Assembly (NCBI GenBank): GCA_026395895.1
Contig: JAPLXV010000003.1
Location: 1-56,600, forward strand
DNA from: Candidatus Nomurabacteria bacterium
Lineage (GTDB): Bacteria > Patescibacteriota > Minisyncoccia > Phycocordibacterales > UBA9973
Direction of reading: 5' to 3'
Length of the DNA: 56,600 nt
The notes beneath the pieces are model-generated. The model did no database searches. It had not been told where the DNA came from and saw only the letters and a program-made list of their open reading frames with translations. This document shows, one piece after another, positions 2,038-25,696 of this stretch. Each line of letters starts with the position of its first letter. The stretch's first letter is position 1. Made by a program: the position numbers and the translations under genes.

Positions 2038-3649
2038 TGTAGATTAAGAACATGGAGGCGTCGCATAGCGGTCTAGTGCACCATCTTGGAAAGGTGGCAG
2101 ACCTGAAAGGGTTTCGAGAGTTCAAATCTCTCCGCCTCCGCAATTTTTCAAAAAGGGTTTCCGAATGCAAAATGGGGTCGGCGCGAAGCGCCGACACTAA
2201 TGTATTTCCCCCGCCGAATTCAGAATCCAAAAGGGTTTTCCACGCTCCGCGTGGCTCAAAAAGTACGGTTCGATCTTTAATTAAAAAGTTCGAACCGACT
2301 TTTTTAAACAAATGAAGATTTTCTTCATTTGTTTTCTCGTTTGCCAATTCCATATTGTATATATTGGCTTTTAGGAATTTGTCGGTAAGTTCGAACCGAT
2401 TATGAGATTTTTTCTCAAAAGCTAGTAATTTCTCTTTGAGAAGCTGTTTTGAGCTAACCAACTTGTTTTTAGATTCGCGATATTCGTCGAGTGAAAGTGC
2501 ATTTTCAAGATAAGCGTTCATCAGCTTCTCAACTTTTGAATCCAAAAGAGAAATTTCATCTTTTGTTTTTTGAGAAAAAATCTCACTCGATTGATTTTCT
2601 GATTGTCGGTCTTTCTCATTTTCGACAATCATCCAATTTGCCCAATCGAGTGGCGAAGAAACTTTTTTGATTTCTTCCTTAATTTGAGAAGTGATGATTT
2701 CCTTACGAACATATTTTTGCAAACAAGGATTTTTCCGTTTGGTACAGCGAAGATAATTATGACCTTTTTGTGTTTCGGTAGTTATAAAACATCCACATTC
2801 TCCACAACGGAAAAATCCTCTATACAAAAATGGTTTCAATCCTTTGCTATGCGGTTTAGATTTTCGGCTCATCACTTCTTGAACAGAATCAAAAAGTTTC
2901 TTTGTGATAATCGGCTTGTGCTTTCCTTCGTATATTTCACCACCATATCTCATCAAGCCAGTGAATATCGGATTTCTCAAAATTTGTTGGTAGTTGGAAA
3001 CGGAAAGCACCTTTCCATTCTTTCTACTCAATCCAAGAGCGTTAAACTTATCGTGGAGCTGTCGCAAAGTGAAATTTCCAGTTGCGTAGGCCTCAAATGT
3101 TTTCTTGATTAACGGAGCAATATTTTCATCTGGTACTATTCCAGCACCTTTCACATTTACATAACCCAGAGGCGACATTTGAGGCCATATACCGTCTTTC
3201 ACTTTGTTTCTGTGCCCACGCTTGATATTCTCACTCAAATTGTCCACATAGTACTTGGATTGCGAAAAAGCAATGGAAAGCATGAACTTACCTTGTGGAG
3301 TTGTATCACACCAGAAAGTTGGAAAATTAAGCTCGGCAATTTTTCCCGTATCGAGCAAATATATTATCTTTCCACCATCAACAGAATTACGAGCAAGGCG
3401 GTCTGGATGCCACGCTAAAATTCCACTTGCCTCATTTGCTTCGATACGGAGAAGCATTTCATTAAATACTGGCCGACCCGGAGCTTTAGCGGTTTGTTTC
3501 TCCACGAAAATATCTACAACCTCAATTTGTTCTTTAACCGCTAACTCTTTGAGTTCGGCCAGTTGGTCTGAAATGCTTCTAACTTGCCGATCTTCTGTGT
3601 CGGTAGATTTTCTAGTGTATATAAAAAATTTTCTAGTTTGGTTATTCAT
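1961..3649 (-). CDS. Large serine recombinase (integrase); ORF reads through attL and antisense to tRNA-Ser
   Basis: N-terminal resolvase motif IYTRKSTDTEDRQ..SISDQ, a recombinase domain, a zinc ribbon (CGECGC...LRCTKRKNPC) and a coiled coil. There is no stop before 1961, so the last ~100 codons come from the X arm, the tRNA antisense strand and the 3' end of the preceding gene. Confidence 0.9.
   Translation of the reverse strand: MNNQTRKFFIYTRKSTDTEDRQVRSISDQLAELKELAVKEQIEVVDIFVEKQTAKAPGRPVFNEMLLRIEANEASGILAWHPDRLARNSVDGGKIIYLLDTGKIAELNFPTFWCDTTPQGKFMLSIAFSQSKYYVDNLSENIKRGHRNKVKDGIWPQMSPLGYVNVKGAGIVPDENIAPLIKKTFEAYATGNFTLRQLHDKFNALGLSRKNGKVLSVSNYQQILRNPIFTGLMRYGGEIYEGKHKPIITKKLFDSVQEVMSRKSKPHSKGLKPFLYRGFFRCGECGCFITTETQKGHNYLRCTKRKNPCLQKYVRKEIITSQIKEEIKKVSSPLDWANWMIVENEKDRQSENQSSEIFSQKTKDEISLLDSKVEKLMNAYLENALSLDEYRESKNKLVSSKQLLKEKLLAFEKKSHNRFELTDKFLKANIYNMELANEKTNEENLHLFKKVGSNFLIKDRTVLFEPRGAWKTLLDSEFGGGNTLVSALRADPILHSETLFEKLRRRRDLNSRNPFRSATFPRWCTRPLCDASMFLIYIKFLLLTMRDLFLVQKIVRTQATCL
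2054..2140 (+). tRNA. tRNA-Ser (anticodon GGA), no encoded CCA
   Basis: Acceptor GGAGGCG/CGCCTCC. Anticodon stem CCATC/GGTGG with loop TTGGAAA. Long variable arm. T arm GAGAG-TTCAAAT-CTCTC. Discriminator G at 2140. Confidence 0.9.
2144..2257 (+). repeat. X arm (P' arm of the att site), diverged inverted repeat of 3671-3784
   Basis: Collinear with the reverse complement of 3671-3784. Both encode EPRGAW....GGN...ALRAD....SE.LFEKL and keep the hairpins CCACGC-GGA-GCGTGG and GTCGGCGC-TTC-GCGCCGAC (CGGCAC-TTC-GTGCCG in X'). Confidence 0.75.
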
Positions 3650-3670
3650 ATTGTTGTATTGGCTAGCGAG

Positions 3671-3784
3671 GAGCCACGCGGAGCGTGGCGAATCCTTTCA
3701 GAATCAGGATTTTTTGGGGGGAATTCAGAACAGACGGCACTTCGTGCCGATCATTTTTTTGGTTCCGAAGCCCTTTTCGAAAAA
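3671..3784 (-). repeat. X' arm, inverted copy of the X arm
   Basis: See 2144-2257. It abuts core TTGCGG at 3785-3790. Confidence 0.75.
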
Positions 3785-3790
3785 TTGCGG

Positions 3791-4016
3791 TATTCATTGT
3801 ACAAAATTCGAACCTTTTTTGAAAGCAATCCTGATGAAGAAATCTGAAACAATGCGGACGAAGTTTTGCGGAAACAATTTTCTGGGGAAAGGATTCCGCA
3901 AAACTTCGGCTGATTCCTTTTTTCTGAATTCGGATGTCGCAAGCGGAGGAGGAGGGGTCTGGGGAGGAATCCTCCGCTTGCTCCTCTTTTTGTTTTGGCA
4001 AAATTCGGGCGGGCTT
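3791..4016 (+). repeat. Y arm: 226 bp inverted repeat, near-identical to 6046-6271
   Basis: I count 4 mismatches against the reverse complement of 6046-6271. Perfect internal stems CGAAGTTTTGCGGAA 3859-3873 / TTCCGCAAAACTTCG 3894-3908 and GCAAGCGGAGGA 3939-3950 / TCCTCCGCTTGC 3970-3981. Confidence 0.9.
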
Positions 4017-4032
4017 CCATAAAAAATACAGA

Positions 4033-4061
4033 TTGATAAAATCCATAATTTTTGCTATCAT
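4033..4061 (+). promoter_or_regulatory. Candidate sigma-70 promoter for the element cargo operon
   Basis: TTGATA 4033-4038, 17 nt spacer, TATCAT 4056-4061, about 60 nt upstream of the XRE gene. Confidence 0.35.
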
Positions 4062-4120
4062 TGTTTTGTGAGCAAAGAAAGTAATCACTCATAAGATAAT
4101 ACTATCAAAGTTTGGATACT

Positions 4121-4318
4121 ATGGCAACTATATCAGAAAACATAAAACGAATACGAACAAAACAAGGATTGACGCAAGACGACTTGTCGAAGAAAGCGGA
4201 CATCAAATACTCTACCCTGACAAAAATTGAGGGTGGCGTCGTTACCAAACCAAGCGTTCAAACAATTCAAAAAATCGCCAAGTCGTTAGGCGTTTCCATT
4301 GAGGAATTATTAAAATAA
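4121..4318 (+). CDS. XRE-family helix-turn-helix transcriptional regulator
   Basis: NIKRIRTKQGLTQDDLSKKADIKYSTLTKIEGG..KPSVQTIQKIAKSLGVSIEELL is a classic HTH_3 pattern. ATG at 4121 is preferred over the TTG at 4112 in the track. Confidence 0.85.
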   Translation: MATISENIKRIRTKQGLTQDDLSKKADIKYSTLTKIEGGVVTKPSVQTIQKIAKSLGVSIEELLK

Positions 4319-4329
4319 CTTAAAAAATT

Positions 4330-4941
4330 ATGTATATACCACTTTGGATAATTGTTATCGGTGTCGTCGTATATTTCTTTTGGGCTAAAAACAAAAAAGA
4401 AAAACCGGAACACAAAAAAGAAGCAACCCCGCCTTTAAATGACAAAAGAACAAGTTTGAATCCTTTATTTTCTGAAGAAGAAATAGCTCGCAAAAAAGAA
4501 ACCGCAGACAAATGGCAAGAATATGTTGTGCAGTATTTTGATGAGTTGTTCAATCAAGAAAAAAAAGAAGTAGAAGCTCACCAGAAATCTGGTAAAGATA
4601 AGGACACTTTCAAGCCAAGTGAAAAACTTATAGGCATTATTCAAAAACAATCAATGTCATTATTGGGACGAAATAATGCAATGAAAGATTATCGAAAAAT
4701 GATTGAATCCAATATTGCTATTATTAACGGAGGAGAAATTGAGAAAGTGGAAAAAACATATTGGGATCAAATGTGCCATATTCCTTACGATAACTTTGAC
4801 ATTATTTATAACCCCGATATTTATTTGGACGATAAAGAAATGAAGGAAATGTACAATAGCAATATGGAGCATCGCAAGAAATTCTGGAAAGACAGTTGGG
4901 ACTACATTCTTAAAAAAGAGTATGTGCAGAAAGAAGACTAA
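4330..4941 (+). CDS. Hypothetical protein with N-terminal transmembrane anchor (element cargo)
   Basis: 203 aa ORF with N-terminal IPLWIIVIGVVVYFFW, then a charged K/E-rich region. I recognise no family. Confidence 0.6.
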   Translation: MYIPLWIIVIGVVVYFFWAKNKKEKPEHKKEATPPLNDKRTSLNPLFSEEEIARKKETADKWQEYVVQYFDELFNQEKKEVEAHQKSGKDKDTFKPSEKLIGIIQKQSMSLLGRNNAMKDYRKMIESNIAIINGGEIEKVEKTYWDQMCHIPYDNFDIIYNPDIYLDDKEMKEMYNSNMEHRKKFWKDSWDYILKKEYVQKED

Positions 4942-4965
4942 TTATTAAAATAACTTAAATACACT

Positions 4966-5502
4966 ATGGACAAAAATAATATAAAACCAAAAGAATTATT
5001 TGAGAAATTAAAATCGGTTGGATTAGCCGAAGAAGTAAGCCCATTTTTATTAAAAGGAATAGATACTCACACTGAAAAAGATAATTTGGGTGGGTATTTA
5101 GTGTTAGAAGATCTAAAAGATTTTATTAAGAAAAAACTACCGTCCCTAGAGCAAAAAATAAGTGGCTGGGCAAAAGGAGGAATGCGTTCTTATACTAAAG
5201 ATGAGTTACTTGCATACGAACAAAGCAAGGTGCTTATTGATTTGCTTGAATCAACGGGTGGAAACGGCGAAAAACTTAGGGAATATTGGTTATCACATTG
5301 TCCAACACAACACAAAACAATCAAGGAATCAAAATTGTTTGACTCAAATAGTGAAGAAACAGAAGTTTTTGATAAAGTTCTTGGAAAAATCGTGAAAGAT
5401 GGTGGTGACGAAAATGATGAGAATTTTTTAAAGGAAGTTGAAAAGCGTTTGGGACACCCAATCAAAAACTTTTTTGATTGGTCGCTTCCTAGCGAAAAAT
5501 AA
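4966..5502 (+). CDS. Hypothetical protein (element cargo)
   Basis: 178 aa ORF on the same strand and tightly spaced. I recognise no family. Confidence 0.6.
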   Translation: MDKNNIKPKELFEKLKSVGLAEEVSPFLLKGIDTHTEKDNLGGYLVLEDLKDFIKKKLPSLEQKISGWAKGGMRSYTKDELLAYEQSKVLIDLLESTGGNGEKLREYWLSHCPTQHKTIKESKLFDSNSEETEVFDKVLGKIVKDGGDENDENFLKEVEKRLGHPIKNFFDWSLPSEK

Positions 5503-5503
5503 A

Positions 5504-6040
5504 GTGGAATTTTCAGAAATTCTTAAAAGTATAGAAAGTAAGTCTACTAAAGCAAACCATGAGTTGATTTGGGCTTATTTTTTTATTTTTCACTTAAACA
5601 AAGAAAAATCTTTTGACTATGAAGTTGAGGAAGGTCCAAATGACTTAACCGATGTTTATGCAAAATCTAAAAGCGAAAAGTTTCCAGTTTTGAAATTACA
5701 ACTTACATGGGCAAAAGAAAAAGATTTCAGTCCTAAAATAGTAATTAAGGATTTGAAGTTTAGTACAGAAATTATTTTAGAAGCCGTTAAAAGAAAATAC
5801 GAAAAGTATGAAAAACAAGGTAAAGCGGATTCACTAAATGAAATAATTCTTGTTATACAAGGCGACCTTCCAAGTGGGTGGGATGATTTAGTTGATGATA
5901 AAAAAATAAAAGAAGAAATTGTAAAATATCCTTTTCGTGGAATTTATTACATTACTCCACCTGGAACTAAATCATCCTTGAAAGATAGAACGCCTATTAT
6001 GCATAACGGATTCGTTCTATGTTTCAAGGAGGCATTTTAA
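5504..6040 (+). CDS. Hypothetical protein (element cargo); start uncertain (GTG 5504 or ATG 5438)
   Basis: The ORF is open over 5438-6040. GTG at 5504 lies 1 nt after the upstream stop, whereas ATG at 5438 would overlap by 65 nt. Confidence 0.55.
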   Translation: MEFSEILKSIESKSTKANHELIWAYFFIFHLNKEKSFDYEVEEGPNDLTDVYAKSKSEKFPVLKLQLTWAKEKDFSPKIVIKDLKFSTEIILEAVKRKYEKYEKQGKADSLNEIILVIQGDLPSGWDDLVDDKKIKEEIVKYPFRGIYYITPPGTKSSLKDRTPIMHNGFVLCFKEAF

Positions 6041-6045
6041 TTTAT

Positions 6046-6271
6046 AAGCCCGCCCGAATTTCGCCAAAACAAAAAGAGGAGCAAGCGGAGGATTCCTCCC
6101 CAGACCCCTCCTCCTCCGCTTGCGACATCCGAATTCGGAAAAAAGGAATCAGCCGAAGTTTTGCGGAATCCTTTCCCCAGAAAATTGTTTCCGCAAAACT
6201 TCGTCCTCATTGTTTCAGATTTCTTCATCGGGATTGCTTTCAAAAAAGGTTCGAATTTTGTACAATGAATA
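6046..6271 (-). repeat. Y' arm, inverted copy of 3791-4016, abutting the attR core at 6272-6277
   Basis: See 3791-4016. Confidence 0.9.
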
Positions 6272-6307
6272 CCGCAAATGGTTTTTTTATGCTAAAATTG
6301 TAGGTAT

Positions 6308-11552: not shown

Positions 11553-13631
11553 ATGGCTAAAGAAAAAGAAGTAAAAAATGGGCACCATTATGATGCCTCT
11601 GATATCTCTGTTTTAGAAGGACTTGATCCAGTCAGACGTCGTCCAGGAATGTATATCGGAACCACCGGTCCAGAAGGTTTACACCATCTCGTTTGGGAAA
11701 TTTTTGATAACTCGCGCGATGAAGCGATGGGTGGTTTTTGTGATGATATAGAAGTTGTCCTTTTGCCGAACAATCGTATTCGAGTGGCAGACAATGGGCG
11801 AGGTGTGCCTGTTGATATTCACAAAAAAACTAAAGTATCTGCTTTGGAAACTGTTATGACTACTCTGCATGCTGGAGGAAAATTCGGTGGAGAAGGCTAT
11901 AAAGTTTCTGGAGGCTTGCATGGAGTGGGAGCGTCAGTAGTAAATGCGCTCTCAATTTATTGTAAAGCGGAAGTGCATAAAGATGGTGGTAAATATATAC
12001 AAGAATATTCTCAAGGTAAGAAAAAAGCTTCAGTAAAAAAAATTGGGTCTTCAAAATTACATGGAACCATCATTACTTTTGAACCAGATCAAGAAATTTT
12101 TAAAGATATAAAGTTTGATTTAAGTACAATTATAAATCATATTCGTCAGCAAGCTTATTTAGTTAAAAAATTAAAAGTTTCAATAATAGATGCGCGAGGT
12201 TGGGATAATAAAAAAGGACTTGATGACTCTGACGTATTTTATTTTAGAGATCTTGGCATAGAACTTCCCTCCACTTCTTTTTATTTTGAAGGAGGATTGA
12301 TTTCTCTTATAAAATATTACAACAAGTTTCAAAAACCACTTCACGATCATATTTTTTATGTTGAAAAAGAATTGGACGGTGTGATGGTTGAAATAGCTTT
12401 ACAATATGTTGATGACATTGTTGATAGAATAATTCCTTTCGCAAATAATATACATACCGCTGAAGGTGGGACACATGTGACTGGTTTTAAAACTGCTCTT
12501 ACTCGCACCTTGAATACTTATTGTAAAAAGAATGAAATGATGAAAGATTCAGAAGGTGGATTTACCGGCGATGATGTACTGGAAGGTCTTACAGCTGTCA
12601 TTTCGGTGAAGTTAAGAGAGATACAATTTGAAGGTCAAACCAAGGCAAAATTAGGCTCTATGGAGGCCCAAGGAGCTGTTGGGACAATTTTTGGGGAGGC
12701 TTTTGCTGCTTTTCTAGAGGAAAACCCAGATGAAGCAAAAGCTATAATAAATAAGTCTATTTTGGCCTTAAAAGCTCGTAAAGCAGCCAAAGCGGCTAAA
12801 GATTCAGTTCTTCGTAAAGGTGCGCTTGAAGGTATGACCCTGCCTGGAAAATTAGCAGATTGCCAAAGCAAAAGTGCAGAAGATTCAGAATTATTTTTAG
12901 TAGAAGGAGATTCGGCAGGAGGTTCGGCTAAACAAGGTAGAGATAGACGCACTCAAGCCATTCTTCCGCTTCGTGGAAAAATTTTAAATGTTGAACGTGC
13001 TCGCATAGATAAAATGCTTGCTTCTAAAGAAGTAAGAGCTCTGGTTATTGCGATGGGTACTTCTATTGGAGACACTTTTGATCTTTCTAAAATGCGTTAT
13101 CACAAAATAATTATTGCCACAGATGCTGATGTGGACGGTGCGCACATTCGCACCCTTTTGCTGACTCTTTTTTATAGATATTTTAGACAAGTTGTGGACG
13201 CGGGCTATATTTATATTGCTCAACCACCACTTTATAAAATAAAAAGAGGAAAGGAAGTTAGTTATGCATATTCCGATGAAGAGAAAATAAAAATTATCGG
13301 TAAAGAAACAGATGTAAGTGAGATACAAGCGGTTAATGATGAAGAACCCCTACCCGACCTCCCCCTTAGTAAGGGGGAGGAGAAAGGAGGGGGTCTAGAG
13401 TCTAAACAATCTACAAAAATTCACATTCAGCGTTATAAAGGTCTCGGAGAAATGAACCCAGAAGAACTTTGGGAAACAACCATGGACCCAGCTCATCGAG
13501 TATTAAAAAAAGTAAATATAGATGATGCCGAAGAGGCCAACAAAATTTTTGAAATTCTGATGGGTTCCGAAGTTCCTCCTCGAAAATCCTTTATCCAATC
13601 TAATGCTAAATTAGCAGAGATTGATATTTAA
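11553..13631 (+). CDS. gyrB: DNA gyrase subunit B
   Basis: YDASDISVLEGLDPVRRRPGMYIG, GGLHGVGASVVNALS, EGDSAGGSAKQGRDR, PLRGKILNVE, QRYKGLGEMNPEELWETTMDP. Confidence 0.97.
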   Translation: MAKEKEVKNGHHYDASDISVLEGLDPVRRRPGMYIGTTGPEGLHHLVWEIFDNSRDEAMGGFCDDIEVVLLPNNRIRVADNGRGVPVDIHKKTKVSALETVMTTLHAGGKFGGEGYKVSGGLHGVGASVVNALSIYCKAEVHKDGGKYIQEYSQGKKKASVKKIGSSKLHGTIITFEPDQEIFKDIKFDLSTIINHIRQQAYLVKKLKVSIIDARGWDNKKGLDDSDVFYFRDLGIELPSTSFYFEGGLISLIKYYNKFQKPLHDHIFYVEKELDGVMVEIALQYVDDIVDRIIPFANNIHTAEGGTHVTGFKTALTRTLNTYCKKNEMMKDSEGGFTGDDVLEGLTAVISVKLREIQFEGQTKAKLGSMEAQGAVGTIFGEAFAAFLEENPDEAKAIINKSILALKARKAAKAAKDSVLRKGALEGMTLPGKLADCQSKSAEDSELFLVEGDSAGGSAKQGRDRRTQAILPLRGKILNVERARIDKMLASKEVRALVIAMGTSIGDTFDLSKMRYHKIIIATDADVDGAHIRTLLLTLFYRYFRQVVDAGYIYIAQPPLYKIKRGKEVSYAYSDEEKIKIIGKETDVSEIQAVNDEEPLPDLPLSKGEEKGGGLESKQSTKIHIQRYKGLGEMNPEELWETTMDPAHRVLKKVNIDDAEEANKIFEILMGSEVPPRKSFIQSNAKLAEIDI
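13346..13394 (+). repeat. GC-rich palindromic module in frame in gyrB (family 3)
   Basis: 10 bp stem CCTCCCCCTT 13358-13367 / AAGGGGGAGG 13371-13380. Outer pair ACCCC 13346-13350 / GGGGT 13390-13394. It encodes PLPDLPLSKGEEKGGG just upstream of the RYKGLGEMNP motif. Confidence 0.8.
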
Positions 13632-15771: not shown

Positions 15772-16710
15772 ATGGCAAATAGGCACCTTTCAAGATCAAT
15801 AGTTCTCCAAACGCTTTTTGAGTGGGATTTTATGTCTGCAGAAGAGAGTGGTGTTTGGAATGATAAAAAGATAAAAGAAGCACTTAATAGAAATTTAAAA
15901 GAATTTGCTCCTGGGTTAGAGGACGATATTTTTGTTTTTTCTTTGGTGGAACAAGTTTTAGAAAAATCTAAAGTAATTGATGAAATAATAAAAAAAGCTG
16001 CGCCGGACTGGCCTATTGATAAAATTTCCGTGGTGGACAGAAATATTTTACGAATTGGTTTAACTGAACTTCTTTTTGGTGATAGAAGCCAAGTACCTCC
16101 GAAAGTAGCTATTAATGAAGCCATAGAATTGGCCAAAACTTTTGGCGGGGAAAATTCTGGTAAATTTGTAAACGGTGTATTGGGTGCAGTTTATAAAGAA
16201 ATTGGCGAACCTGGCAAAGAACAAGTAAGTAAAAAGAAAAAAATTGAAGAACCAGTAGATATAACAAAATTGCCAGTTGAAAAACTGGGGGGTGCCTTGA
16301 TTTATGCCAAAAGGCCTGCCCGTTTCTCTGGCGGGGGCAATGATATTTTATTTGCCTTAGTGCACGACGTTTTTGGTTACTGGACTTTGTCTAAAGGTAG
16401 TATTGAAGATAGTGAAAATATAGAAGAGGGGACAATAAGAGAGATAAAAGAAGAAACGGGCCTTGATATTTTTATCAAAGAAAAAATTGGAGAAAATGAA
16501 TATGTAGCTAGTCATCCGGAAAAAGGAAAAACATTAAAAAAAGTGACATATTTTTTGGCAGAAAGTAAATATCAAAAACTTAAACTCGGAACTTCTGGCG
16601 GGCTAGATGACGCTAAATGGTTCCAGCTTTCAGAAATTCCTGAGCTTCGTATTTACAATGACATTATTCCACTTATTACAAAAGCGATCGAAATTATCAG
16701 TAAAAAATAA
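15772..16710 (+). CDS. nusB: NusB antitermination factor fused to a C-terminal NUDIX hydrolase domain
   Basis: The N-terminal ~145 aa are NusB-like (RSIVLQTLFEWDF..., DRNILRIGLTELLF, VAINEAIELAKTFGGENSGKFVNGVLG). The C-terminus has a Nudix box GSIEDSENIEEGTIREIKEETGL. Confidence 0.85.
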   Translation: MANRHLSRSIVLQTLFEWDFMSAEESGVWNDKKIKEALNRNLKEFAPGLEDDIFVFSLVEQVLEKSKVIDEIIKKAAPDWPIDKISVVDRNILRIGLTELLFGDRSQVPPKVAINEAIELAKTFGGENSGKFVNGVLGAVYKEIGEPGKEQVSKKKKIEEPVDITKLPVEKLGGALIYAKRPARFSGGGNDILFALVHDVFGYWTLSKGSIEDSENIEEGTIREIKEETGLDIFIKEKIGENEYVASHPEKGKTLKKVTYFLAESKYQKLKLGTSGGLDDAKWFQLSEIPELRIYNDIIPLITKAIEIISKK

Positions 16711-17418: not shown

Positions 17419-19566
17419 ATGCGACTAAAAAACCTTGAAATAAATGGCTTTAAATCATTTTCTAAAAAAACTGTTTTGGAGTTTCAAAATTCGATTGTGG
17501 CTATTGTCGGTCCCAATGGATCTGGTAAATCAAATGTAGTGGAAGCTTTGCGTTTTGTTTTAGGCGAACAGTCAATGAAATCAATGCGTGGGTCATTGGG
17601 AGCTGATTTGATTTTTAAAGGGTCAAAAAACTTACCCAAAAGTTCCCGAGCAACTGCTACTATATATTTTAATAACTCTGATAAAATTTTTAAACTTTCT
17701 AATGAAACAGGAGAAAATATAAATTTAAATTATGATGTTATTTCAATTTCTCGTGAAGTTTTTTCTGATGGCTTAAATAAATATATTTTGAATGGTTCAG
17801 AAGTAAGATTAAAAGATATTAATAATCTTTTATCCTCAGTTAATATTGGTTCTTCTGGGCACCATATTATTTCGCAAGGTGAGGCGGACAGAATTCTAAA
17901 TGCTTCTCCTAGGGATAGAAGGGAAATGGTAGAAGATGCTCTTGGACTTAAAATTTACCAATATAAAATAAAAGAAGCGCAACGCAAATTAGAAAGAACT
18001 ACCGACAATATGAAAGAGGTTTCACTTTTGCGTCGAGAAAATGCTCCGCATTTAAATTTTCTAAAAAAACAAGTAGATAAATTTGAAAAAGCAAAAGAAA
18101 TGCAGGTAACATTGTTATCTCTTTATAAAGAATACTTAAAGAAAGAAAGTGTTTATTTAGAAAAAGAACAATCAAATTTACTTTCAGAAAAAAATAAAAT
18201 TTCTTTAGAGTTGAAAAACGTAAAAGAGAAAATCTCTGATACAGATGAAACTGAAAAGAGAGGAGAAAGTGAAAAAGAAAAAGAATTAAAAGTATTTGAA
18301 AAAAAGATAAGTGAAATTCATGCAGTCAAAAATGAAATAGAACGCAAATTGGGAAGAATTGAAGGAATTCTTGAATCAAAAGGAAATAAAGTTAAAATTT
18401 CTGGTAAATGTCCTTTATGTGGCAGTGAAATTAAGGAAAAAGAAGAAGGTCAGATAGAAAAGAGACAAAATGATGAAAAAGAATTGGAAGAATTAAAAAA
18501 TTCTCAAGCTGGTATTCTAGCTGAAATGGAGAATTTAAAAAATGAGGAGGGAAATATTTTTGAAAAAATAGAAATATTGAAAAAAGAAATTAATCAAGAG
18601 AATGAAGCTCTGCATATAAAAGAAAAGGAGAAATTTAATTTTAGAGTTAGGCACCAAGAGTTATCCTCTTCTTTAGATCTAATTTCTGTCAAAGAACAAA
18701 ATCTTAAAAGAGAGATAGAATCTTTCGAAAATGAAATAAAAGAAGGTGAAGCTTTAATTGGAAGTGAAATTTTGTCTTATAAAAATTTTGAGGTGAATGA
18801 AATAATTGATAGAAATGCGCAAGAAGAATCAAGACGAAAAATTGAACGTATAAAAATGAAGTTAGAAGACGTTGGTGTGGGTGGAGGATCAGAAGTAATG
18901 AAAGAATATGAGGAAGTTTTTCAAAGAGATAATTTTTTAGCCAAAGAGATGGAAGATTTAGCTGTAAGTATAGAGTCTCTTCGAAAATTGATGGCAGATT
19001 TGAAAGAAAAAATAGATATAGAATTTAAAGAGGGTATTAAGAAAATAAATGTAGAGTTTGATAAATTCTTTTCTTTGATGTTTGGCGGAGGAACTGGCTA
19101 TCTTGCAATTGTTGTTGAAAGTAAAAAGAAGAAAGAAGCCCCGACGCTCGAAGAGGTCGGGGTCCCGACTCCTGATGAAGATCAGGACGTCGGGAAAGAA
19201 ATCGTTCCTGAACAAGGCATTGAAATTAATGTTTCGCTTCCACATAAAAAAGTGAAAGAACTGAATGCACTTTCTGGAGGAGAAAGGTCTCTTACCTCTA
19301 TTGCTCTTCTTTTTGCTATGTCCCAAGTAAATCCACCGCCATTTTTGGTACTTGATGAAACAGATGCTGCGCTAGACGAAGCAAATTCTCGCAAATATGG
19401 GGATATGCTAGAAAAACTCTCTCATCACTCTCAGCTTATAGTCGTTACTCATAATAGGGAAACAATGTCTCGCGCTGGCATTTTATATGGCGTCACTATA
19501 GGTTCCGATGGTGCCTCCAAACTTCTCTCTGTCAAACTGGACGAAGCCGCCGCAATTGCAAAGTAA
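17419..19566 (+). CDS. smc: SMC-family ATPase, short form (715 aa) with no recognisable hinge and a central CPLC motif
   Basis: SMC-type heads: GFKSFSKKTVLEF...GPNGSGKSNVVEALRFVLGEQS at the N-terminus and LSGGERSLTSIALLFAM...FLVLDETDAALDEAN...VVTHNRETM at the C-terminus. The middle is all coiled coil, with GKCPLCGSE at aa 331-334. Confidence 0.85.
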   Translation: MRLKNLEINGFKSFSKKTVLEFQNSIVAIVGPNGSGKSNVVEALRFVLGEQSMKSMRGSLGADLIFKGSKNLPKSSRATATIYFNNSDKIFKLSNETGENINLNYDVISISREVFSDGLNKYILNGSEVRLKDINNLLSSVNIGSSGHHIISQGEADRILNASPRDRREMVEDALGLKIYQYKIKEAQRKLERTTDNMKEVSLLRRENAPHLNFLKKQVDKFEKAKEMQVTLLSLYKEYLKKESVYLEKEQSNLLSEKNKISLELKNVKEKISDTDETEKRGESEKEKELKVFEKKISEIHAVKNEIERKLGRIEGILESKGNKVKISGKCPLCGSEIKEKEEGQIEKRQNDEKELEELKNSQAGILAEMENLKNEEGNIFEKIEILKKEINQENEALHIKEKEKFNFRVRHQELSSSLDLISVKEQNLKREIESFENEIKEGEALIGSEILSYKNFEVNEIIDRNAQEESRRKIERIKMKLEDVGVGGGSEVMKEYEEVFQRDNFLAKEMEDLAVSIESLRKLMADLKEKIDIEFKEGIKKINVEFDKFFSLMFGGGTGYLAIVVESKKKKEAPTLEEVGVPTPDEDQDVGKEIVPEQGIEINVSLPHKKVKELNALSGGERSLTSIALLFAMSQVNPPPFLVLDETDAALDEANSRKYGDMLEKLSHHSQLIVVTHNRETMSRAGILYGVTIGSDGASKLLSVKLDEAAAIAK
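19139..19195 (+). repeat. 57 nt double-hairpin module in frame in smc (family 1, TCCCGAC/GTCGGGA)
   Basis: CCCCGAC-N10-GTCGGGG, then TCCCGAC-[TCCTGAT GAAG ATCAGGA]-C-GTCGGGA. It encodes APTLEEVGVPTPDEDQDVGK. Confidence 0.85.
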
Positions 19567-19568
19567 AT

Positions 19569-21485
19569 TTATTTGAATTTGATTTTTTCTTCCTTGCCGA
19601 TTATTAATTGATTTGGCTGGAAGAATTTGTTTAGTTTAACGGTGTCTTTTTTTATGGACATACTTCCATCTCTATTTAATTTAATTTCCAAAAGCATACC
19701 CTGCATTGTATTTACGGAAAAACCCTGGTCAAAAATAAAGTTGCCTAGCGAATAAGCGATAAAACCCACGCACGAATTTTGAGTGCAATCTTTTGGGCTA
19801 TAAACTTCTGTATCTTCTACCACGTGTGGATGAGTGCCAATTATAATTTTAGCCCCGTCATCTATTGCCTTGTGCGCTAAATATTCTTGTCTGGAATTAT
19901 GTTTTATTTTATATTCGTCTCCAAAATGAAATGACACGACTAAATAATCAACTTGCTTAGATGCATTTTGCACTATTTCATCAAAACGCGGATTGCTTGC
20001 AAATAATAAACCAGCTTTGTCTGCTCCTGCCTCCATCCAATCTGGCCCTACATCTGAAAATCCCAAATATCCTATTTTCATTCCATATTTTTCTATAATA
20101 ACAGGCATTTCTGCTTCGTTTGCATTCATTCCTCCACCAATATATGAAATTTCATTTTCTTTTAATCTAGTTAAAGTATCAACATAAGCATTTTGTCCCC
20201 AATCTCCCATATGATTATTAGCAACCGAAACCACAGAAAATCCTGCGCCTTTTAATGCAGGAATAGTGGAAGGGTCCATTCTAAATGAATATAAATTATG
20301 CATATCTTTTCCTGCATCAGAGGCTGGACCTTCCAAATTTGCAAAAGTTATATCAGATCTTTTTAAGATTCCTAATTTTTCAAAAAGGGCTGAGTAATCT
20401 CCTTTGAAATTTTTGTTTACAGAATTTTTAACTCCACGATCAAGCATTATATCTCCACCGAACAAAAGAGTGACGAAATCTTGATCATATACTACAGGTA
20501 AATCAGTTCTTTCTTTGACCCAAGCAGTATTAGCGTCAGCTTCTCCGCCATAATATATATTTTTATTTAAATATTTTAAAATATTTTCTACGTCCTTAAA
20601 ACGATCTTTACTTTGTAAAAGAGTGATAGCAATATGGCGTGTTCCAGCTTCTGAAAGGGGAACTGAAAAAGTGGAAATAACTGTTTGTAAAGCGACATCT
20701 GTATAACCACTTTTACCTCCCAAATAGCCATTTTCAAGCAGGAATTGATTATTACTGAACCAATTGTGTGTTTTATTGGAATAGCTTCGTTTGGTTGTGA
20801 TTTGTAGTAAATTTGGGTCTTTTTGATTTAAATATCCTGCTAATTTAAACATATCAAAAACAGTTGATTGATTTTTAGGAGAAAGTCCGCTTGGGTCGTC
20901 AAAACTAGTCTTAGATAATTCTAATTTGAGAGCCTCCTGGTTCATTTTTTTTAGAAAAATATCTCGGCCAAAAAATTCAGCTATTACTTCGGCAGCATCA
21001 TTGCTTGATTCTAAAAGTAGGGGATAAATGAGGTCTGTAATTTTTATTTTTTCTCCTATTTTCAAATTACCATTCTTTCCAGAGGTGGCTGAGGCTTTTT
21101 TAGAAACTTTAGCAATATCATCTGAGCTTTTTGATTCTGTGGCCACAAGCGCAGTCATAAGTTTAGAAACAGAAGCAAGTGAATATTGTTCATCTTGATT
21201 TTTTGTCAAAATAATTTCTCCCGTATCTAAATCACCAACTAAAAAAGCCTTGGCTGATACTTTTGGTTTCAAATTTAAATCTTTTACGAAATAAGAAAAT
21301 CCAGATGTTAATTCTGGTGCTGTCAGAGATTCCATGGCTGTTGCGGTATTTTCATTTGGTTCTATTATTTTTTTATATTCAGCATCTTTAAAAAAGAGAG
21401 AGACAAAAAAAATACCAACCATAGTAGCAGAGATTGTCCAAAATCCGAGTTTAATTTTTGGACCTAGGGTAGATTTCATATTCAT
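19569..21485 (-). CDS. Fusion protein: N-terminal D-alanyl-D-alanine carboxypeptidase (S11 PBP) and C-terminal CapA-type metallophosphatase domain
   Basis: N-terminal TM, then SVSKLMT (SxxK), ESSNDAA (SxN) and KSGYT (KTG). The C-terminus has GGDIMLDRGV, ANLEGP, VANNHMGDWG, SFHFGDEY and GTHPHV. Confidence 0.85.
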   Translation of the reverse strand: MNMKSTLGPKIKLGFWTISATMVGIFFVSLFFKDAEYKKIIEPNENTATAMESLTAPELTSGFSYFVKDLNLKPKVSAKAFLVGDLDTGEIILTKNQDEQYSLASVSKLMTALVATESKSSDDIAKVSKKASATSGKNGNLKIGEKIKITDLIYPLLLESSNDAAEVIAEFFGRDIFLKKMNQEALKLELSKTSFDDPSGLSPKNQSTVFDMFKLAGYLNQKDPNLLQITTKRSYSNKTHNWFSNNQFLLENGYLGGKSGYTDVALQTVISTFSVPLSEAGTRHIAITLLQSKDRFKDVENILKYLNKNIYYGGEADANTAWVKERTDLPVVYDQDFVTLLFGGDIMLDRGVKNSVNKNFKGDYSALFEKLGILKRSDITFANLEGPASDAGKDMHNLYSFRMDPSTIPALKGAGFSVVSVANNHMGDWGQNAYVDTLTRLKENEISYIGGGMNANEAEMPVIIEKYGMKIGYLGFSDVGPDWMEAGADKAGLLFASNPRFDEIVQNASKQVDYLVVSFHFGDEYKIKHNSRQEYLAHKAIDDGAKIIIGTHPHVVEDTEVYSPKDCTQNSCVGFIAYSLGNFIFDQGFSVNTMQGMLLEIKLNRDGSMSIKKDTVKLNKFFQPNQLIIGKEEKIKFK

Positions 21486-23611
21486 TATGTTGTTAGCGCA
21501 TAATCTATCGTTTTTCTTTCTAAATCAACACTTTTTACTTTTATCTTTACTCGGTCGCCTAGTCTGTATTTTTTCCCCGACGCTTTCGGTCGGGATCCCG
21601 GCCCCAAAGGGCGTCGGGACTTTTTCCCTTGTCCGACTAGTTCCAATTTTTTTTCATTAAAAATATAAAAATTATCTTCCATATCTCGTACTCGTACCAG
21701 ACCCTCGCATTTTGTTTCTACTTCTTCTACATAAATACCCCATTCTGTTATACCACTAATAATACCTTCAAATGTTTTTGAAATACGAGAAGACATATAT
21801 TCAACTTGTTTGTATTTTATAGAGGCTCGTTCAGCATCTGAAGCAAATTTTTCTCTTTCTGATGCTTTTCTGGAAATTTCTTCATAGATACTTAATTTCT
21901 CTTTGCCCACTTTTAATCCTTTTAGGTAATCTGTCAAAAGTCTGTGGACTACTACATCTGGGTAGCGTCTGATGGGGGAAGTAAAATGAGCATAGTATTC
22001 AAAAGCCAAACCATAGTGGCCGACATTTTTTGTGGAATAAATTGCTTTGGCCATAGAGCGTATAATTGCGCGATTGACTGTATTTTCTTCATTTTTTCCC
22101 TCAAGACTCTTTAGAAGATTATTTAATTCATAATTTGGAATAACCCCATCAATTAAAGATATTTTATATCCCAAACTCCTTAAAAAGAATGCCAAATCAG
22201 TCATTTTTTCTTTACTAGGATTATCATGGATACGATAGACAAATACTCCTCCATCTTTCTTGGTGCCTTTGGAGATAGTTTCAGCCACTTTTTTATTTGC
22301 TAAAAGCATAAATTCTTCAATTAATTTGTTTGAATCACCTCGTACTTTTTTTATTACTTTTAACGGTGTTCCATTTTTATCTAAAACAAATTTTACTTCT
22401 TCTTGTTCGAGCGAGATAGCTCCATTTGCAAATCTTTCTTTGTTCAATTTTTTAGCCAAATTATTTAAAATAAAAAGTTCTTTGTGCAGTGGCGCTGAAT
22501 TTTCTTTTATAGATTTTTCCGCTTCTTCGTAAGTAAATCTTTTTTGAGAATGTATCACCGTACGTCCGTACCATTCTTTTTTTACTTGCGCGTTTTTGTC
22601 TAGGACAAAAACTGCGCTCATGGTCAGTCTGTCTTTATTGGGAACTAGAGAACAGAGGTCGTTAGAAAGTACTTCCGGAAGCATTGGGATAGTTCTATCT
22701 ACTAAATAAACAGAAGTGCCTCTTTTTTTTGCTTCCTTATCAATTTCGCTTCCAATTTTTACATAATGAGAAACGTCGGCTATATGAATTCCGATTTCAT
22801 ATACCTCACCCCCTAACCCCCTCTCCTTGAAACCCCCTTGCTCCCCCTTATCAAGGGGAAACCATTTGCCTCCCCTGACAAGGGGAGGTCTGGAGGGGTT
22901 AAGGAGAGGGGGGAGAATACGGAATGAAATGGCATCATCAAAATCTTTTGCATCATCTGGGTCAATAGTAAAAGTGAGAGTTTTTCTAAAATCGCGTCGC
23001 CCATTATAATCTTCATTTTTAATACCTAAACTTTTTATTTTTTCCGCTTCCTCCTCAACTTTTTGAGGCAGTTCACTATCAAACCCTTTTTCTATAGCGA
23101 TAGCATGCATTTCCGCATTATTGTCTCCGGGTTTTCCTAAAACTTTTATTATTTTTCCTTCTGGTGCTTTTAGTCCATCTTTCCAAAAAATTATTTCTGT
23201 ATAGACTTTTTGTCCTGCCTTTGCGCCATTTAGCATTTTTTCGGGTATTAGAATATCGGTATACATTTTTGTATCATCGGGTTTTAGAAAATATATGCCG
23301 TCTTCTTTCTCTAAGACTCCCGAAAAGCCCATCTTTGCACGAGAGATTATTTTTAATACTTCGGCTGTCAAACGCCCTTTTCCTTTTGGATGCAAAGTAA
23401 TTTCAACCATATCACCGTGCAGAGCTGTATTTAAGTGCCTAAAATCAATCTCAGGGTCCTTCCCGACGTTCTGATTTCTATCAGAAGTCGGGATCCCGAC
23501 CCCATTGGGCGTCGGGACCTCATTCAATATTCTTACATATCCAATACCCTTGCTTGTTATAGATATAATACCCTGTACTGTCTTTTGAATTTTTTTTGTT
23601 TTTCCTTTCAC
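21485..23611 (-). CDS. rnr: Ribonuclease R (start probably GVG-context GTG at 23611; track ORF extends to 23722)
   Basis: Cold-shock/OB N-terminus, an RNB domain (DPDDAKDFDDA, GIHIADVSHYV, VYLVDRTIPMLP) and a C-terminal S1 domain. The 23612-23722 extension overlaps the rpsP start region on the opposite strand. Confidence 0.9.
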   Translation of the reverse strand: MKGKTKKIQKTVQGIISITSKGIGYVRILNEVPTPNGVGIPTSDRNQNVGKDPEIDFRHLNTALHGDMVEITLHPKGKGRLTAEVLKIISRAKMGFSGVLEKEDGIYFLKPDDTKMYTDILIPEKMLNGAKAGQKVYTEIIFWKDGLKAPEGKIIKVLGKPGDNNAEMHAIAIEKGFDSELPQKVEEEAEKIKSLGIKNEDYNGRRDFRKTLTFTIDPDDAKDFDDAISFRILPPLLNPSRPPLVRGGKWFPLDKGEQGGFKERGLGGEVYEIGIHIADVSHYVKIGSEIDKEAKKRGTSVYLVDRTIPMLPEVLSNDLCSLVPNKDRLTMSAVFVLDKNAQVKKEWYGRTVIHSQKRFTYEEAEKSIKENSAPLHKELFILNNLAKKLNKERFANGAISLEQEEVKFVLDKNGTPLKVIKKVRGDSNKLIEEFMLLANKKVAETISKGTKKDGGVFVYRIHDNPSKEKMTDLAFFLRSLGYKISLIDGVIPNYELNNLLKSLEGKNEENTVNRAIIRSMAKAIYSTKNVGHYGLAFEYYAHFTSPIRRYPDVVVHRLLTDYLKGLKVGKEKLSIYEEISRKASEREKFASDAERASIKYKQVEYMSSRISKTFEGIISGITEWGIYVEEVETKCEGLVRVRDMEDNFYIFNEKKLELVGQGKKSRRPLGPGSRPKASGKKYRLGDRVKIKVKSVDLERKTIDYALTT
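21575..21619 (-). repeat. 45 nt double-hairpin module in frame near the rnr C-terminus (family 1, read in a different frame)
   Basis: CCCGAC-GCTTTCG-GTCGGG, then TCCCGGC-CCCAAAGGGC-GTCGGGA. It encodes SRRPLGPGSRPKASG. Confidence 0.8.
22807..22914 (-). repeat. ~108 nt nested multi-hairpin GC-rich module in frame in rnr, just upstream of the HIADVS catalytic motif (family 3)
   Basis: Outer 12 bp stem CCCCCTCTCCTT 22817-22828 / AAGGAGAGGGGG 22901-22912. Inner hairpins CCCCTT-ATC-AAGGGG (22844-22858) and CCTCCCCT-GACA-AGGGGAGG (22869-22888). It encodes PPLLNPSRPPLVRGGKWFPLDKGEQGGFKERGLGGE. Confidence 0.85.
23461..23517 (-). repeat. 57 nt double-hairpin module in frame in the rnr N-terminal region (family 1)
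   Basis: TCCCGAC-[GTTCTGAT TTCT ATCAGAA]-GTCGGGA, then TCCCGAC-CCCATTGGGC-GTCGGGA. Same length, orientation and frame as the smc copy. It encodes VPTPNGVGIPTSDRNQNVGK. Confidence 0.85.
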
Positions 23612-25250: not shown

Positions 25251-25696
25251 AAGATTATTTTAAATGGCATGCTATAAAATCTGATATTGAAAATTCTGGG
25301 AAAGAAATTCTTTTTCGTGATAGAGAAATTTGGTGGTGCTCGCTTGGAGAAAATGTTGGTTTTGAGCAAGATGGAAAAAATGAGAAATATGAACGGCCCG
25401 TTTTAGTTTTCAGAAAATTTAACAAAGGGATGTTTTGGGGATTACCACTTACTTCAAAAGAAAAAAATGATTCTTTTCACTATAAACTTACTTTACATAT
25501 AAAAAATGAAAATGATGAAATTGAAGAAAAAATTTCTATGGTTATATTATCTCAATTAAGGTTGTTGAGTGGAAAGCGTTTAATTCGTCGTGTTGCTCGT
25601 ATTAATGAAAATAATTTTAAAGAAATAGAAAACAAGGTTATTAGTCTAATAAAAACAAACGAAAACGGACCCCTTTCGGGGTCCTCGAGTGCCTAA
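25247..25696 (+). CDS. PemK/MazF-like toxin-fold protein (GTG start overlapping the trmD stop)
   Basis: REIWWCSLGENVGFEQDGKNEKYERPVLVFRKFNKGMFWGLPLTSK matches the conserved core of MazF/PemK-family proteins. GTGA start/stop overlap with trmD. Confidence 0.7.
   Translation: MKDYFKWHAIKSDIENSGKEILFRDREIWWCSLGENVGFEQDGKNEKYERPVLVFRKFNKGMFWGLPLTSKEKNDSFHYKLTLHIKNENDEIEEKISMVILSQLRLLSGKRLIRRVARINENNFKEIENKVISLIKTNENGPLSGSSSA
25667..25684 (+). repeat. GC hairpin at the 3' end of the MazF-like ORF (possible terminator or palindromic module)
   Basis: GGACCCC-TTTC-GGGGTCC encodes GPLSGS just before the stop. Confidence 0.5.

Follow-up and report, generated by a model that had tools for sequence, protein, structure and literature searches.

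The window, by which we mean the whole stretch of 56,600 nucleotides (56.6 kb) that was analyzed, derives from Candidatus Nomurabacteria, a tiny groundwater bacterium. Two of its genes, coding for a short SMC-like ATPase and for RNase R, contain three double hairpins, positioned as follows.

17419–19566, + strand: smc, short SMC-like ATPase of 715 aa (Pfam SMC_N, 1.7e-56)
19139–19195, + strand: copy 1, 57-nt double hairpin within smc, residues ~574–592
21485–23611, - strand: rnr, RNase R (Pfam RNB, CSD2 and S1)
21575–21619, - strand: copy 3, 45-nt double hairpin, C-terminal S1 domain of RNase R
23461–23517, - strand: copy 2, 57-nt double hairpin, N-terminal cold-shock/OB region of RNase R

The SMC-like protein gives a 100% match to a Candidatus Nomurabacteria protein. 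An alternative genetic code was considered to account for the shortness of smc and rejected, the ORF statistics fitting code 11. The RNase R is 100% identical to P0001; the deposited protein has 708 aa with a GTG start at 23611, and the longest ORF extends to 23722.

Sequence and folding of the double hairpins

On the + strand, copy 1 reads CCCCGAC-GCTCGAAGAG-GTCGGGG followed by TCCCGAC-TCCTGATGAAGATCAGGAC-GTCGGGA, and its second loop contains a nested 7-bp hairpin. Copy 2, on the rnr coding strand (-), reads TCCCGAC-GCCCAATGGG-GTCGGGA followed by TCCCGAC-TTCTGATAGAAATCAGAAC-GTCGGGA. An earlier note, made from the window sequence, had placed 57-nt double hairpins at these smc and rnr positions and assigned them a common reading frame; the sequences agree with this, and both copies start at codon position 2, encoding APTLEEVGVPTPDEDQDVGK in smc and VPTPNGVGIPTSDRNQNVGK in rnr. 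Copy 1 also lies ahead of GIEI as claimed, with GIEINV seven residues further on. The two 57-nt copies do have the same orientation with respect to translation, but this does not extend to the family, members of which occur in both orientations inside ORFs elsewhere. Copy 3, which the earlier note did not contain, is read in a different frame from the 57-nt copies and encodes SRRPLGPGSRPKASG. Examples of peptides spanning the inserts are VPTPNGVGIPTSDR and SRRPLGPGSRPK.

The double hairpins are not the product of chance, because both the enrichment of TCCCGAC (11 occurrences versus 1.96 expected, with 0 of 100 shuffles reaching 11) and the folding energies of the DNA (-22 to -23.6 kcal/mol, z = -6.3 to -7.8; none of 200 shuffles folded as well) surpass those of shuffled sequences. 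The inner stems of the two 57-nt copies differ by a compensatory change, TCCTGAT/ATCAGGA in smc versus TTCTGAT/ATCAGAA in rnr. This structure-preserving difference had been pointed out before, and two more paired differences add to it: the first loop has CTC/GAG in smc and CCC/GGG in rnr, and hairpin 1 has an outer pair that is C-G in smc and T-A in rnr.

Insertion into RNase R and SMC genes

A comparison of 26 RNase R orthologues (73–91% identity) reveals that the 57-nt and 45-nt elements are missing from most close relatives, and that rnr insertions occupy three different sites in different lineages. The insertion of copy 2 is exact, with GAGG on one side and AGGACCC on the other. L001 and L002 have nothing at this site, and L125 has a decayed 39-nt copy there. 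DNA alignment to empty sites in L001 and L002 likewise identifies copy 3 as an exact 45-nt insertion, and a copy identical to it at 42 of 45 positions lies at a different rnr site in L002. The three insertions with empty alleles measure exactly 57, 45 and 45 nt and have no target-site duplication. As judged from these sequences, the double hairpins are insertions and not ancestral peptides, because most Nomurabacteria RNase R orthologues lack them and the DNA alignments resolve exact insertions. The presence/absence polymorphism that the earlier note had proposed to look for is thus found, with most close RNase R orthologues empty and some filled at other sites.

The smc insertion is less clean than those in rnr. 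The element occupies a hypervariable acidic linker, and sequence comparison suggests that it appears to replace the linker rather than simply adding 19 residues. Only one orthologue, P0129, has the smc copy in common with the window, and the gyrB gene of another Nomurabacteria genome (L008) carries a copy that differs from it by 1 nt.

Aligned with the solved Bacillus subtilis RNase R (PDB 8cdu), copy 3 is a 15-residue insertion. For the RNase R of the window, an AlphaFold model from 26 sequences is of low quality (mean pLDDT 49.6) and reveals no more than that residues 31–50 and 664–678 are low-confidence stretches between strands. The 8cdu alignment was the more useful of the two for placing the inserts.

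Distribution and anatomy of the element

An exact-pattern scan with variable loops across 185,579 species genomes returned at least 120 loci, versus about 5 expected by chance. These supply the further copies whose search had been suggested together with that for polymorphism, the near-identical gyrB copy included. Among the loci listed, almost all belong to Patescibacteria, and nine to Omnitrophota. Carriage by phages was rejected, as 2.9 million viral contigs gave no match. A literature search found no published description of CCCGAC hairpin elements in Patescibacteria.

The element consists of two directly abutting hairpins that share the 7-bp stem YCCCGAC/GTCGGGR and enclose variable loops, often hairpins themselves; a nested stem is present in 78 of 124 long loops, versus 8.6 in shuffles. 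Complete elements span 36–64 nt and each of the two hairpins 17–33 nt. In the left flank, 75% of copies have A at -2 and 65% have G at -1, and most flanks are (T/G)(T/A)AG-like; where an empty allele exists, these bases belong to the target and not to the insert. Copy number appears to be low in each genome (three copies in the window, at least five loci in one MAG), and classical transposition bursts are therefore not evident.

Deep inside ORFs of at least 200 codons lie 35 of 126 sites, a share that rises to ~45% intragenic under laxer criteria; long ORFs contain less than half of the copies, and many intergenic copies lie at gene ends. The length is divisible by three in 29 of 35 copies within long ORFs versus 42 of 91 elsewhere. 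Intragenic copies occur in both orientations, and one and the same DNA is read in varying frames, as VPT..VG or SRRP..SG. Host genes include gyrB, polA, carB and smc, as well as ORFs grouped with uvrA and EF-G.

Alternative explanations

Several features recall REP/REPIN-type repeats mobilized by a RAYT (REP-associated tyrosine transposase, HUH Y1 family) through single-stranded hairpin cut-and-paste without target duplication. The hairpins are short GC-rich palindromes in doublets, insertion leaves no target duplication, the left flank is similar to the GTAG tag of one REP superfamily, and intragenic REP dimers encoding 20–30 residues have already been described (PMC3733652). A conserved Y1_Tnp/RAYT-like family is also widespread in the Candidate Phyla Radiation (CPR), with 2253 matches and 60–80% identity across lineages. 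However, at the four RAYT loci examined (L110, L127, L131 and L134) the palindrome that flanks the gene, and even occurs within it, is another one, TGTNNAAA-(A)CCGAG(C/T)-TTTNNACA, and not the CCCGAC hairpin. The element-bearing loci, ~0.9 Mb of sequence, contain a single RAYT-like ORF and the window none, and clustering of 2129 ORFs from the 120 loci yielded housekeeping families only, with no recurrent transposase near the element. In addition, ~30–45% of copies are intragenic, unlike REPs. The CPR-wide RAYT family, which has its own flanking palindrome at the four loci, was rejected as the mobilizer, and this explanation is unlikely.

Instead of selfish insertions, the hairpins might be functional nucleic-acid structures under selection, such as mRNA stabilizers, translational pause sites, terminators or protein-binding sites. 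Pairing is indeed preserved through paired changes, many intergenic copies lie at gene ends, and some insertions are common to lineages ~25–30% diverged in protein (P0057 and P0066, for instance, both have the rnr C-terminal copy). Against this, most close relatives lack an insertion at the site in question, the positions and genes are unrelated and both orientations are used, and intrastrand templated repair can maintain palindrome pairing in the absence of selection. Nor is there an Rfam family match: the Rfam 15 covariance models detected only tRNA and tmRNA in the window and in eight element-bearing loci. We regard this possibility as quite improbable. Hardly credible is a selected protein module (xPT..VG.PT..VG) with the DNA palindrome as by-product, since the common frame and similar peptides of the two 57-nt copies, and the acidic PDEDQD encoded in smc where orthologues have an acidic linker, are outweighed by frame switching (in the third window copy, L123, L028 and L061 the frame used yields SRRP..SGSRP..SG from the same DNA) and intergenic copies (more than half lie outside long ORFs), which already contradict it, and by the absence of the peptide from most orthologues. 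The preference of the earlier note for nucleic-acid structure or templated copying over peptide selection therefore gains support from the polymorphism, the frame switching, the non-homologous sites and the further copies.

Association with tRNA genes and a small GIY-YIG nuclease

Among 82 tRNAs in the fetched loci, 13 are preceded by a partial copy of their 5' part, and all 13 of these copies are interrupted by the hairpin in a fixed orientation; the intact tRNA follows a short way downstream. A GIY-YIG ORF is located between hairpin and tRNA in L036 and L073 (PF01541, 1.8e-13); in related loci the PF01541 scores range from 1.8e-13 to 3.3e-17. The ORF is stand-alone, comprises ~85 aa and consists entirely of the catalytic domain, with no DNA-binding domain. 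Its closest solved relatives are UPF0213 hypothetical proteins, the UvrC N-terminal domain and SLX1. We know of no biochemical activity for this family.

The tRNA association is also found in metagenomes, where 71 of 80 fetched relatives of the ORF lie within 400 nt of a tRNA gene, on the same strand in all but one. A same-strand tRNA follows within 150 nt in 39 of the 80, and in 27 of these 39 the ORF end overlaps the tRNA start by 9–14 nt. The nuclease ORF often terminates on the TAG of tRNA positions 8–10. A CCGAY..RTCGG hairpin occurs up to 130 nt upstream in 35 of 77 ORFs (background 0.046 per 130 nt), and 29 of 31 ORFs of the tRNA-upstream type have an xCCGAY- or xCCGCC-type hairpin. The stem sequence follows the nuclease clade among these relatives. 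The hairpin module lies 5–25 nt upstream of the GIY-YIG gene in other genomes of Patescibacteria as well as in metagenome contigs whose origin is unassigned. No GIY-YIG ORF is present in the window, and its three copies carry no ORF. In the genome scan, the ORF is retained in 2 of ~17 tRNA-linked hairpin modules, so the hairpin could also be an element in its own right, with a preference for the dispensable tRNA fragment made by the nuclease gene. Our literature search found no tRNA-linked small GIY-YIG genes with hairpins.

The origin of the duplicated tRNA 5' part was considered separately. Spacers are similar to upstream sequence in some loci (L007, L032 and L040) and dissimilar in others. 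Ordinary target duplication, plain tandem duplication and one-sided transduction are each contradicted by at least some loci, and no simple model that we constructed explains the duplication with a hairpin in one copy.

Proposed mechanism and significance

We consider it likely that the three window copies represent a mobile DNA element that is short, GC-rich and palindromic, and that they are non-autonomous; the arrangement in related loci suggests that the ~85-aa GIY-YIG nuclease is the probable mobilizer. The element enters DNA exactly, leaves no target-site duplication and usually lies directly 3' of an (A/T)AG-like sequence. Intragenic insertions would survive where their length is a multiple of three and the reading frame stays open, in tolerant loops or linkers; judging by the open frames, such inserts are presumably translated as 12–21 extra residues. 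In tRNA genes, a composite of hairpin and nuclease appears to have inserted in the D-arm, and duplication of the tRNA 5' part would rebuild an intact tRNA immediately downstream. The candidate nuclease most likely recognizes DNA structure, because it has no DNA-binding domain; its predicted cut sites are the feet of hairpins or of tRNA-like arms when the DNA is single-stranded or cruciform. As the window contains no GIY-YIG nuclease gene, an enzyme encoded at another place in the genome would have to mobilize the copies in trans.

A broader proposal, to which we give somewhat less than an even chance, is that the hairpins are the cis-acting ends of minimal mobile elements of a class not described before. 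In its autonomous form, such an element would be little more than a GC-rich hairpin and the ~85-aa GIY-YIG nuclease; it would invade tRNA genes where the D- or anticodon-arm has its base while rebuilding an intact tRNA, recognize DNA shape (hairpin or cloverleaf arms) and not sequence, and scatter ORF-less cassettes into essential protein genes across the CPR and Omnitrophota.

CPR genomes are tiny and usually thought poor in mobile DNA. Here, essential CPR genes (smc, rnr, gyrB and polA) bear exact, polymorphic hairpin insertions that alter protein length and confuse alignments and gene calls. The elements also offer practical markers for strain-level population genetics of uncultured bacteria. 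UPF0213-type lone GIY-YIG proteins form a large family for which we know of no role; if the nuclease link is true, they acquire a testable function. It would further imply a new route by which a nuclease gene colonizes tRNA genes without killing them, and a very small structure-guided DNA insertion system would be open to study.

Comparison with known systems

Unlike DDE-type MITEs, which have terminal inverted repeats and a target-site duplication, the insertions of 57, 45 and 45 nt are free of any duplication. Closer in behavior are intragenic REP dimers and the Rickettsia palindromic elements (RPE-4, RPE-6 and RPE-1), which are in-frame in housekeeping genes (Di Nocera et al. 2013, PMC3733652). 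The likeness extends to the many host genes for DNA or RNA metabolism, the addition of 20–30 residues, the polymorphism among relatives and the usual lack of a linked transposase. By contrast, the present elements form a different sequence family in Patescibacteria and Omnitrophota, are built of two directly abutting hairpins with identical stems at low copy number, and are physically linked to a GIY-YIG nuclease gene and tRNA genes, a link not reported for REPs or RPEs in the literature searched. The resemblance to RPEs, reportedly first described by Ogata and colleagues in 2000, is in behavior only: in-frame polymorphic insertion into protein-coding genes is found here, but in Candidatus Nomurabacteria and not Rickettsiales, and with 36–64 nt and a CCCGAC stem instead of the RPE family sequence and length.

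REPs are predominantly extragenic and number tens to hundreds per genome. The elements have the form of a REP, a short (20–40 nt) GC-rich imperfect palindrome that is often paired, but the RAYT genes at L110, L127, L131 and L134 are not flanked by the same palindrome, as a cognate RAYT would be. With REPIN/RAYT and IS200/IS605 systems they share hairpin-defined ends, no target duplication, a preferred short flank and non-autonomous copies acting with a single-copy enzyme gene; the candidate enzyme, however, is a GIY-YIG nuclease and not an HUH tyrosine transposase. The unpaired end tag of REPs is GTAG or CGTC (PMC3733652).

The present elements also resemble fungal mitochondrial mobile GC clusters in being GC-rich double hairpins in an AT-rich genome, sometimes nested and sometimes in-frame in protein genes, whereas the fungal clusters are organellar and unrelated in sequence. 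To our knowledge, no enzyme has been assigned to the fungal clusters with certainty, and we know of no tRNA 5' duplication architecture among them.

Free-standing GIY-YIG homing endonucleases include the Seg proteins of phage T4, with SegB in the T4 tRNA gene cluster. Homing endonucleases have a separate DNA-binding domain and a long recognition site and spread by double-strand-break repair. In both systems, the nuclease gene lies in or beside highly conserved genes, here tRNAs, with host function kept. In related loci, a GIY-YIG domain (PF01541) is encoded inside the putative mobile unit; the three window copies have none. The ORF described here differs in being the ~85-aa catalytic domain alone and in its pairing with a GC-rich hairpin that lies within a partial tRNA copy, and ORF-less copies of the hairpin are scattered in protein-coding genes.

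Double hairpins in the smc and rnr genes

The window holds three copies of an element, here the CCCGAC family, that consists of two abutting hairpins with a common 7-bp stem (YCCCGAC/GTCGGGR) and variable loops.

19139-19195, + strand, smc: CCCCGAC-GCTCGAAGAG-GTCGGGG then TCCCGAC-TCCTGATGAAGATCAGGAC-GTCGGGA
23461-23517, coding (-) strand, rnr: TCCCGAC-GCCCAATGGG-GTCGGGA then TCCCGAC-TTCTGATAGAAATCAGAAC-GTCGGGA
21575-21619, coding strand, rnr S1 domain: TCCCGAC-GCCCTTTGGG-GCCGGGA then TCCCGAC-CGAAAGC-GTCGGGG, 45 nt

The sequences of the first two were confirmed exactly as the earlier note gave them, as were their common length of 57 nt, their start at codon position 2 and, by translation, their peptides; the third copy, in the same rnr gene, had been overlooked. 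The host ORFs are identified by their domains as an SMC-like ATPase (SMC_N) and RNase R (RNB, CSD2, S1), and the contig belongs to a Candidatus Nomurabacteria MAG with a G+C content of ~34% and the standard genetic code. Folded as single-stranded DNA, each 57-mer gives two neighbouring hairpins (-22 to -23.6 kcal/mol, z -6.3 to -7.8), and TCCCGAC occurs 11 times in the window versus 1.96 expected. A chance origin of the double hairpins is excluded.

Insertion into rnr and smc

The N-terminal rnr peptide is missing in most of 26 aligned RNase R orthologues (73-91% identity), four of which have shorter variants, and the C-terminal copy is common to only two, both distant. The DNA of the window was aligned with that of two syntenic relatives, L001 and L002 (L numbers denote loci fetched from other genomes or metagenomes). 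The 57-nt event reads GAGG^[57 nt]^AGGACCC in the window versus GAGG^AGGACCC, and the 45-nt event reads AAAAAG^[45 nt]^AAAAAATA versus a lysine-rich run of equal length without interruption. L002 has an insertion of its own, AAGG^[45 nt]^AAAAATTA, at a site that is empty in the window and L001. One more of the aligned orthologues has VPTPFGAGIPTASVG at a third rnr site. All three insertions are explicable without target-site duplication. The 45-nt copies of the window and L002 are identical at 42 of 45 positions, and lie at different sites and in different frames (SRRPLGPGSRPKASG vs VPTPFGAGIPTASVG). A sister lineage, L125, has a decayed 39-nt copy at the site of the window 57-nt rnr copy. The solved RNase R of B. 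subtilis (8cdu) has no counterpart of the 15 residues that the C-terminal copy encodes, and a weak AlphaFold model puts both rnr copies in low-confidence stretches between strands.

The smc element is located in a hypervariable acidic linker, immediately before GIEINV, and is common to one orthologue only (P0129). The insert at this site is a different one in the closest relatives, and L123, a lineage further removed, has a 45-nt member of the family where the linker starts, in the SRRP frame. In the window, the element seems to stand in place of the linker and not to be a mere addition to it. The copies are insertions, with the DNA and not the peptide as the unit. The element is a polymorphic, DNA-level repeat that is inserted exactly and without duplication.

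Distribution and host genes

We scanned 185,579 genomes, one per species, with the strict pattern CCCGAC-N4-20-GYCGGGRTCCCGAC-N4-20-GTCGGG; loci are 8-kb pieces, element counts are lower bounds, and MAG taxonomy labels are used as deposited. At least 120 loci matched versus about five chance matches, by our estimate. The matches listed are almost throughout from Patescibacteria (Saccharibacteria, Nomura-, Kaiser-, Adler-, Vogel-, Zambryski-, Wolfe-, Gottesman-, Kerfeld-, Yanofsky- and Liptonbacteria, and Paceibacterota), and include nine Omnitrophota loci, with the complete Velamenicoccus archaeovorus genome among them, and a few MAGs with other deposited labels. The same pattern has zero matches in 2.9 million viral contigs, and Rfam has no family matching the element.

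The family has conserved stems and free loops, its most frequent form being the 39-nt CCCCGAC-GTAAA-GTCGGGG then TCCCGAC-CGAAGC-GTCGGGA. Nested stems of 3 bp or more occur in 78 of the 124 distinct loops that measure 9 nt or longer (8.6 in shuffles), and some loops contain a whole second hairpin from a sister family. The compensatory inner-stem change pointed out in the earlier note is thus one case of a general rule.

About 45% of the sites are inside long ORFs, at non-homologous positions and in both orientations. Hosts identified by Pfam comprise GyrB (twice), SMC (three lineages), DNA polymerase I, CarB, leucyl aminopeptidase and glycosyltransferases; RNase R is recognized elsewhere by similarity to the window gene, and two more host ORFs cluster by BLASTP with ORFs identified as UvrA and EF-G. 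The GyrB copy of locus L008 differs from the window smc copy by one base. The length is divisible by three in 29 of 35 copies in long ORFs (at least 200 codons, at least 25 on each side of the copy) vs 42 of 91 elsewhere, and the stems contain zero stop codons in all frames. Copies inside genes are filtered for translatability and, judging from the open frames, are probably translated.

Target sites and tRNA genes

The left flank of oriented copies has A at -2 in 75% and G at -1 in 65%. In more than 12 loci, the copy is preceded by the opening 10-11 nt of a tRNA (...GTAG) and followed by the D-arm (CTCAG...); 5-60 nt further on comes an intact tRNA with the same 5' end. An upstream partial copy is present for 13 of 82 tRNAs in the fetched loci; all 13 are split by a double hairpin, in one orientation throughout, and no uninterrupted partial copy was found for these 82 tRNAs. 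In one locus, two of these modules follow each other. In L007, L032 and L040, the spacer is similar to the sequence that precedes the first copy, as in a tandem duplication; in other tRNA-linked loci it is not. L143 (800-990) and L136 (3050-3250) contain a whole pseudo-tRNA-Asn with the double-hairpin element replacing the D-arm and a T-loop split by other hairpins; a 10-15-bp leader/trailer inverted repeat brackets the intact tRNA in both.

A tRNA-associated GIY-YIG gene

In two loci (L036 and L073), the ~260-nt spacer contains an ORF for a protein of ~85 aa with the GIY-YIG catalytic domain (PF01541, E about 1e-13); the stop codon of this ORF is the TAG of tRNA positions 8-10. The solved structures closest to the protein are those of two UPF0213 hypothetical proteins, the UvrC N-terminal domain and SLX1. 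Among 80 related ORFs fetched from metagenomes, 71 are at most 400 nt from a tRNA gene, on the same strand with one exception.

The closer relatives lie immediately upstream of the tRNA, and 27 of the ORFs run 9-14 nt into the tRNA, the tRNAs concerned being those for Val, Ile, Thr, Asn, Pro, Arg, Lys, Gly and Glu. In this class, a partial copy of the same tRNA, split by one or more GC-rich hairpins, precedes the start codon by 5-25 nt; some hairpins are of the CCCGAC family itself and others of sister families (CTCCGAC, AGCCGAC, TGCCGAC, CCCCGAT, CCCCGCC). For 35 of 77 ORFs, the 130 nt upstream include a CCGAY..RTCGG hairpin (background in the same loci, 0.046 per 130 nt), and a hairpin of this general type is present in 29 of 31 upstream-type loci, with a stem sequence that tracks the nuclease clade. 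The more distant relatives lie immediately downstream of an intact tRNA (L166, L169, L173, L178, L190, L213, L214); beyond the ORF comes a partial copy of the 3' part of a tRNA with a GC hairpin replacing the anticodon arm, and the ORF stop codon is sometimes inside the hairpin loop. The hairpins thus stand at, or in place of, natural arms of the tRNA copies. A same-family ORF in L030 (3900-4250) lies between 14-nt inverted repeats (ATCCCGTTAGAGAT / ATCTCTAACGGGAT), without tRNA pieces.

The element is physically coupled to this miniature gene at many independent loci; the window itself has no nuclease gene. We propose that this nuclease is responsible for mobilising the hairpins, the ORF-less smc and rnr copies among them, and that recognition would be by structure, not sequence.

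Other palindromes and features

Stems that have 7 bp or more and include 4 or more G/C are ~eight times commoner in the window than in shuffles. Further features of the window are:

693-726, 13358-13380, 25667-25684: GC-rich perfect hairpins within ORFs
1961-3649, - strand: large serine recombinase ORF, overlapping tRNA-Ser (2054-2141)
2150-2300, just downstream of tRNA-Ser: three GC-rich hairpins, GTCGGCGCGAAGCGCCGAC, CCACGCTCCGCGTGG and the T-arm-like CGGTTCGA..TCGAACCG, with no Rfam match
3785-4016 and 6046-6277, adjoining the recombinase ORF: 232-nt inverted repeat pair, 98% complementary, enclosing 2 kb with three ORFs and zero Pfam matches
15772-16710: NusB-NUDIX fusion protein upstream of rnc and smc
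22780-22900, - strand, rnr: second GC-rich nested palindrome family (CCTCCCC..GGGGAGG, CCCCTTG..CAAGGGG), encoding LPPLLNPSRPPLVRGGKWFPLDKGEQGGFKERGLGGEV in the RNB domain
51245-51274: 30-nt double hairpin of another family, TCCGCCAGAGGCGGA then TCCGCCTCTGGCGGA, in frame (SARGGSASGG) within ORF 51098-52171

The 1961-6277 region is possibly an integrated element or a segment capable of inversion. The 22780-22900 stretch has a hypervariable length in orthologues; L002 and the solved RNase R lack it. The TCCGCC/GGCGGA family of 51245-51274 also splits a partial tRNA-Arg copy in L121. A small PaaX_M/Cas2-like ORF is found in L001 (4481-4825), and the same Pfam type in 5 of the 120 element-bearing loci listed.

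Comparison with known systems

The main alternative to mobilisation by the GIY-YIG nuclease is a REP/RAYT system, in which a REP-associated tyrosine transposase would be responsible. A conserved RAYT-like Y1 transposase family of ~225 aa is widespread in CPR (L110, 400-1900; L127, L131, L134). Each gene is flanked by a conserved-loop palindrome, TGTNNAAA-CCGAG-TTTNNACA, and has one copy of it within its own coding sequence. The alternative is weakened because this palindrome differs from the CCCGAC element in all four loci read.

In the literature searched, of incomplete coverage and hence not proof, we found neither this hairpin family nor its occurrence across Patescibacteria and Omnitrophota described, nor any unit of hairpin and GIY-YIG gene within tRNA genes. 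In-frame palindromic insertion, as in smc and rnr, is already known from Rickettsia palindromic elements and intragenic REP dimers (PMC3733652), and what is seen in these two genes is therefore a variant of a known phenomenon.
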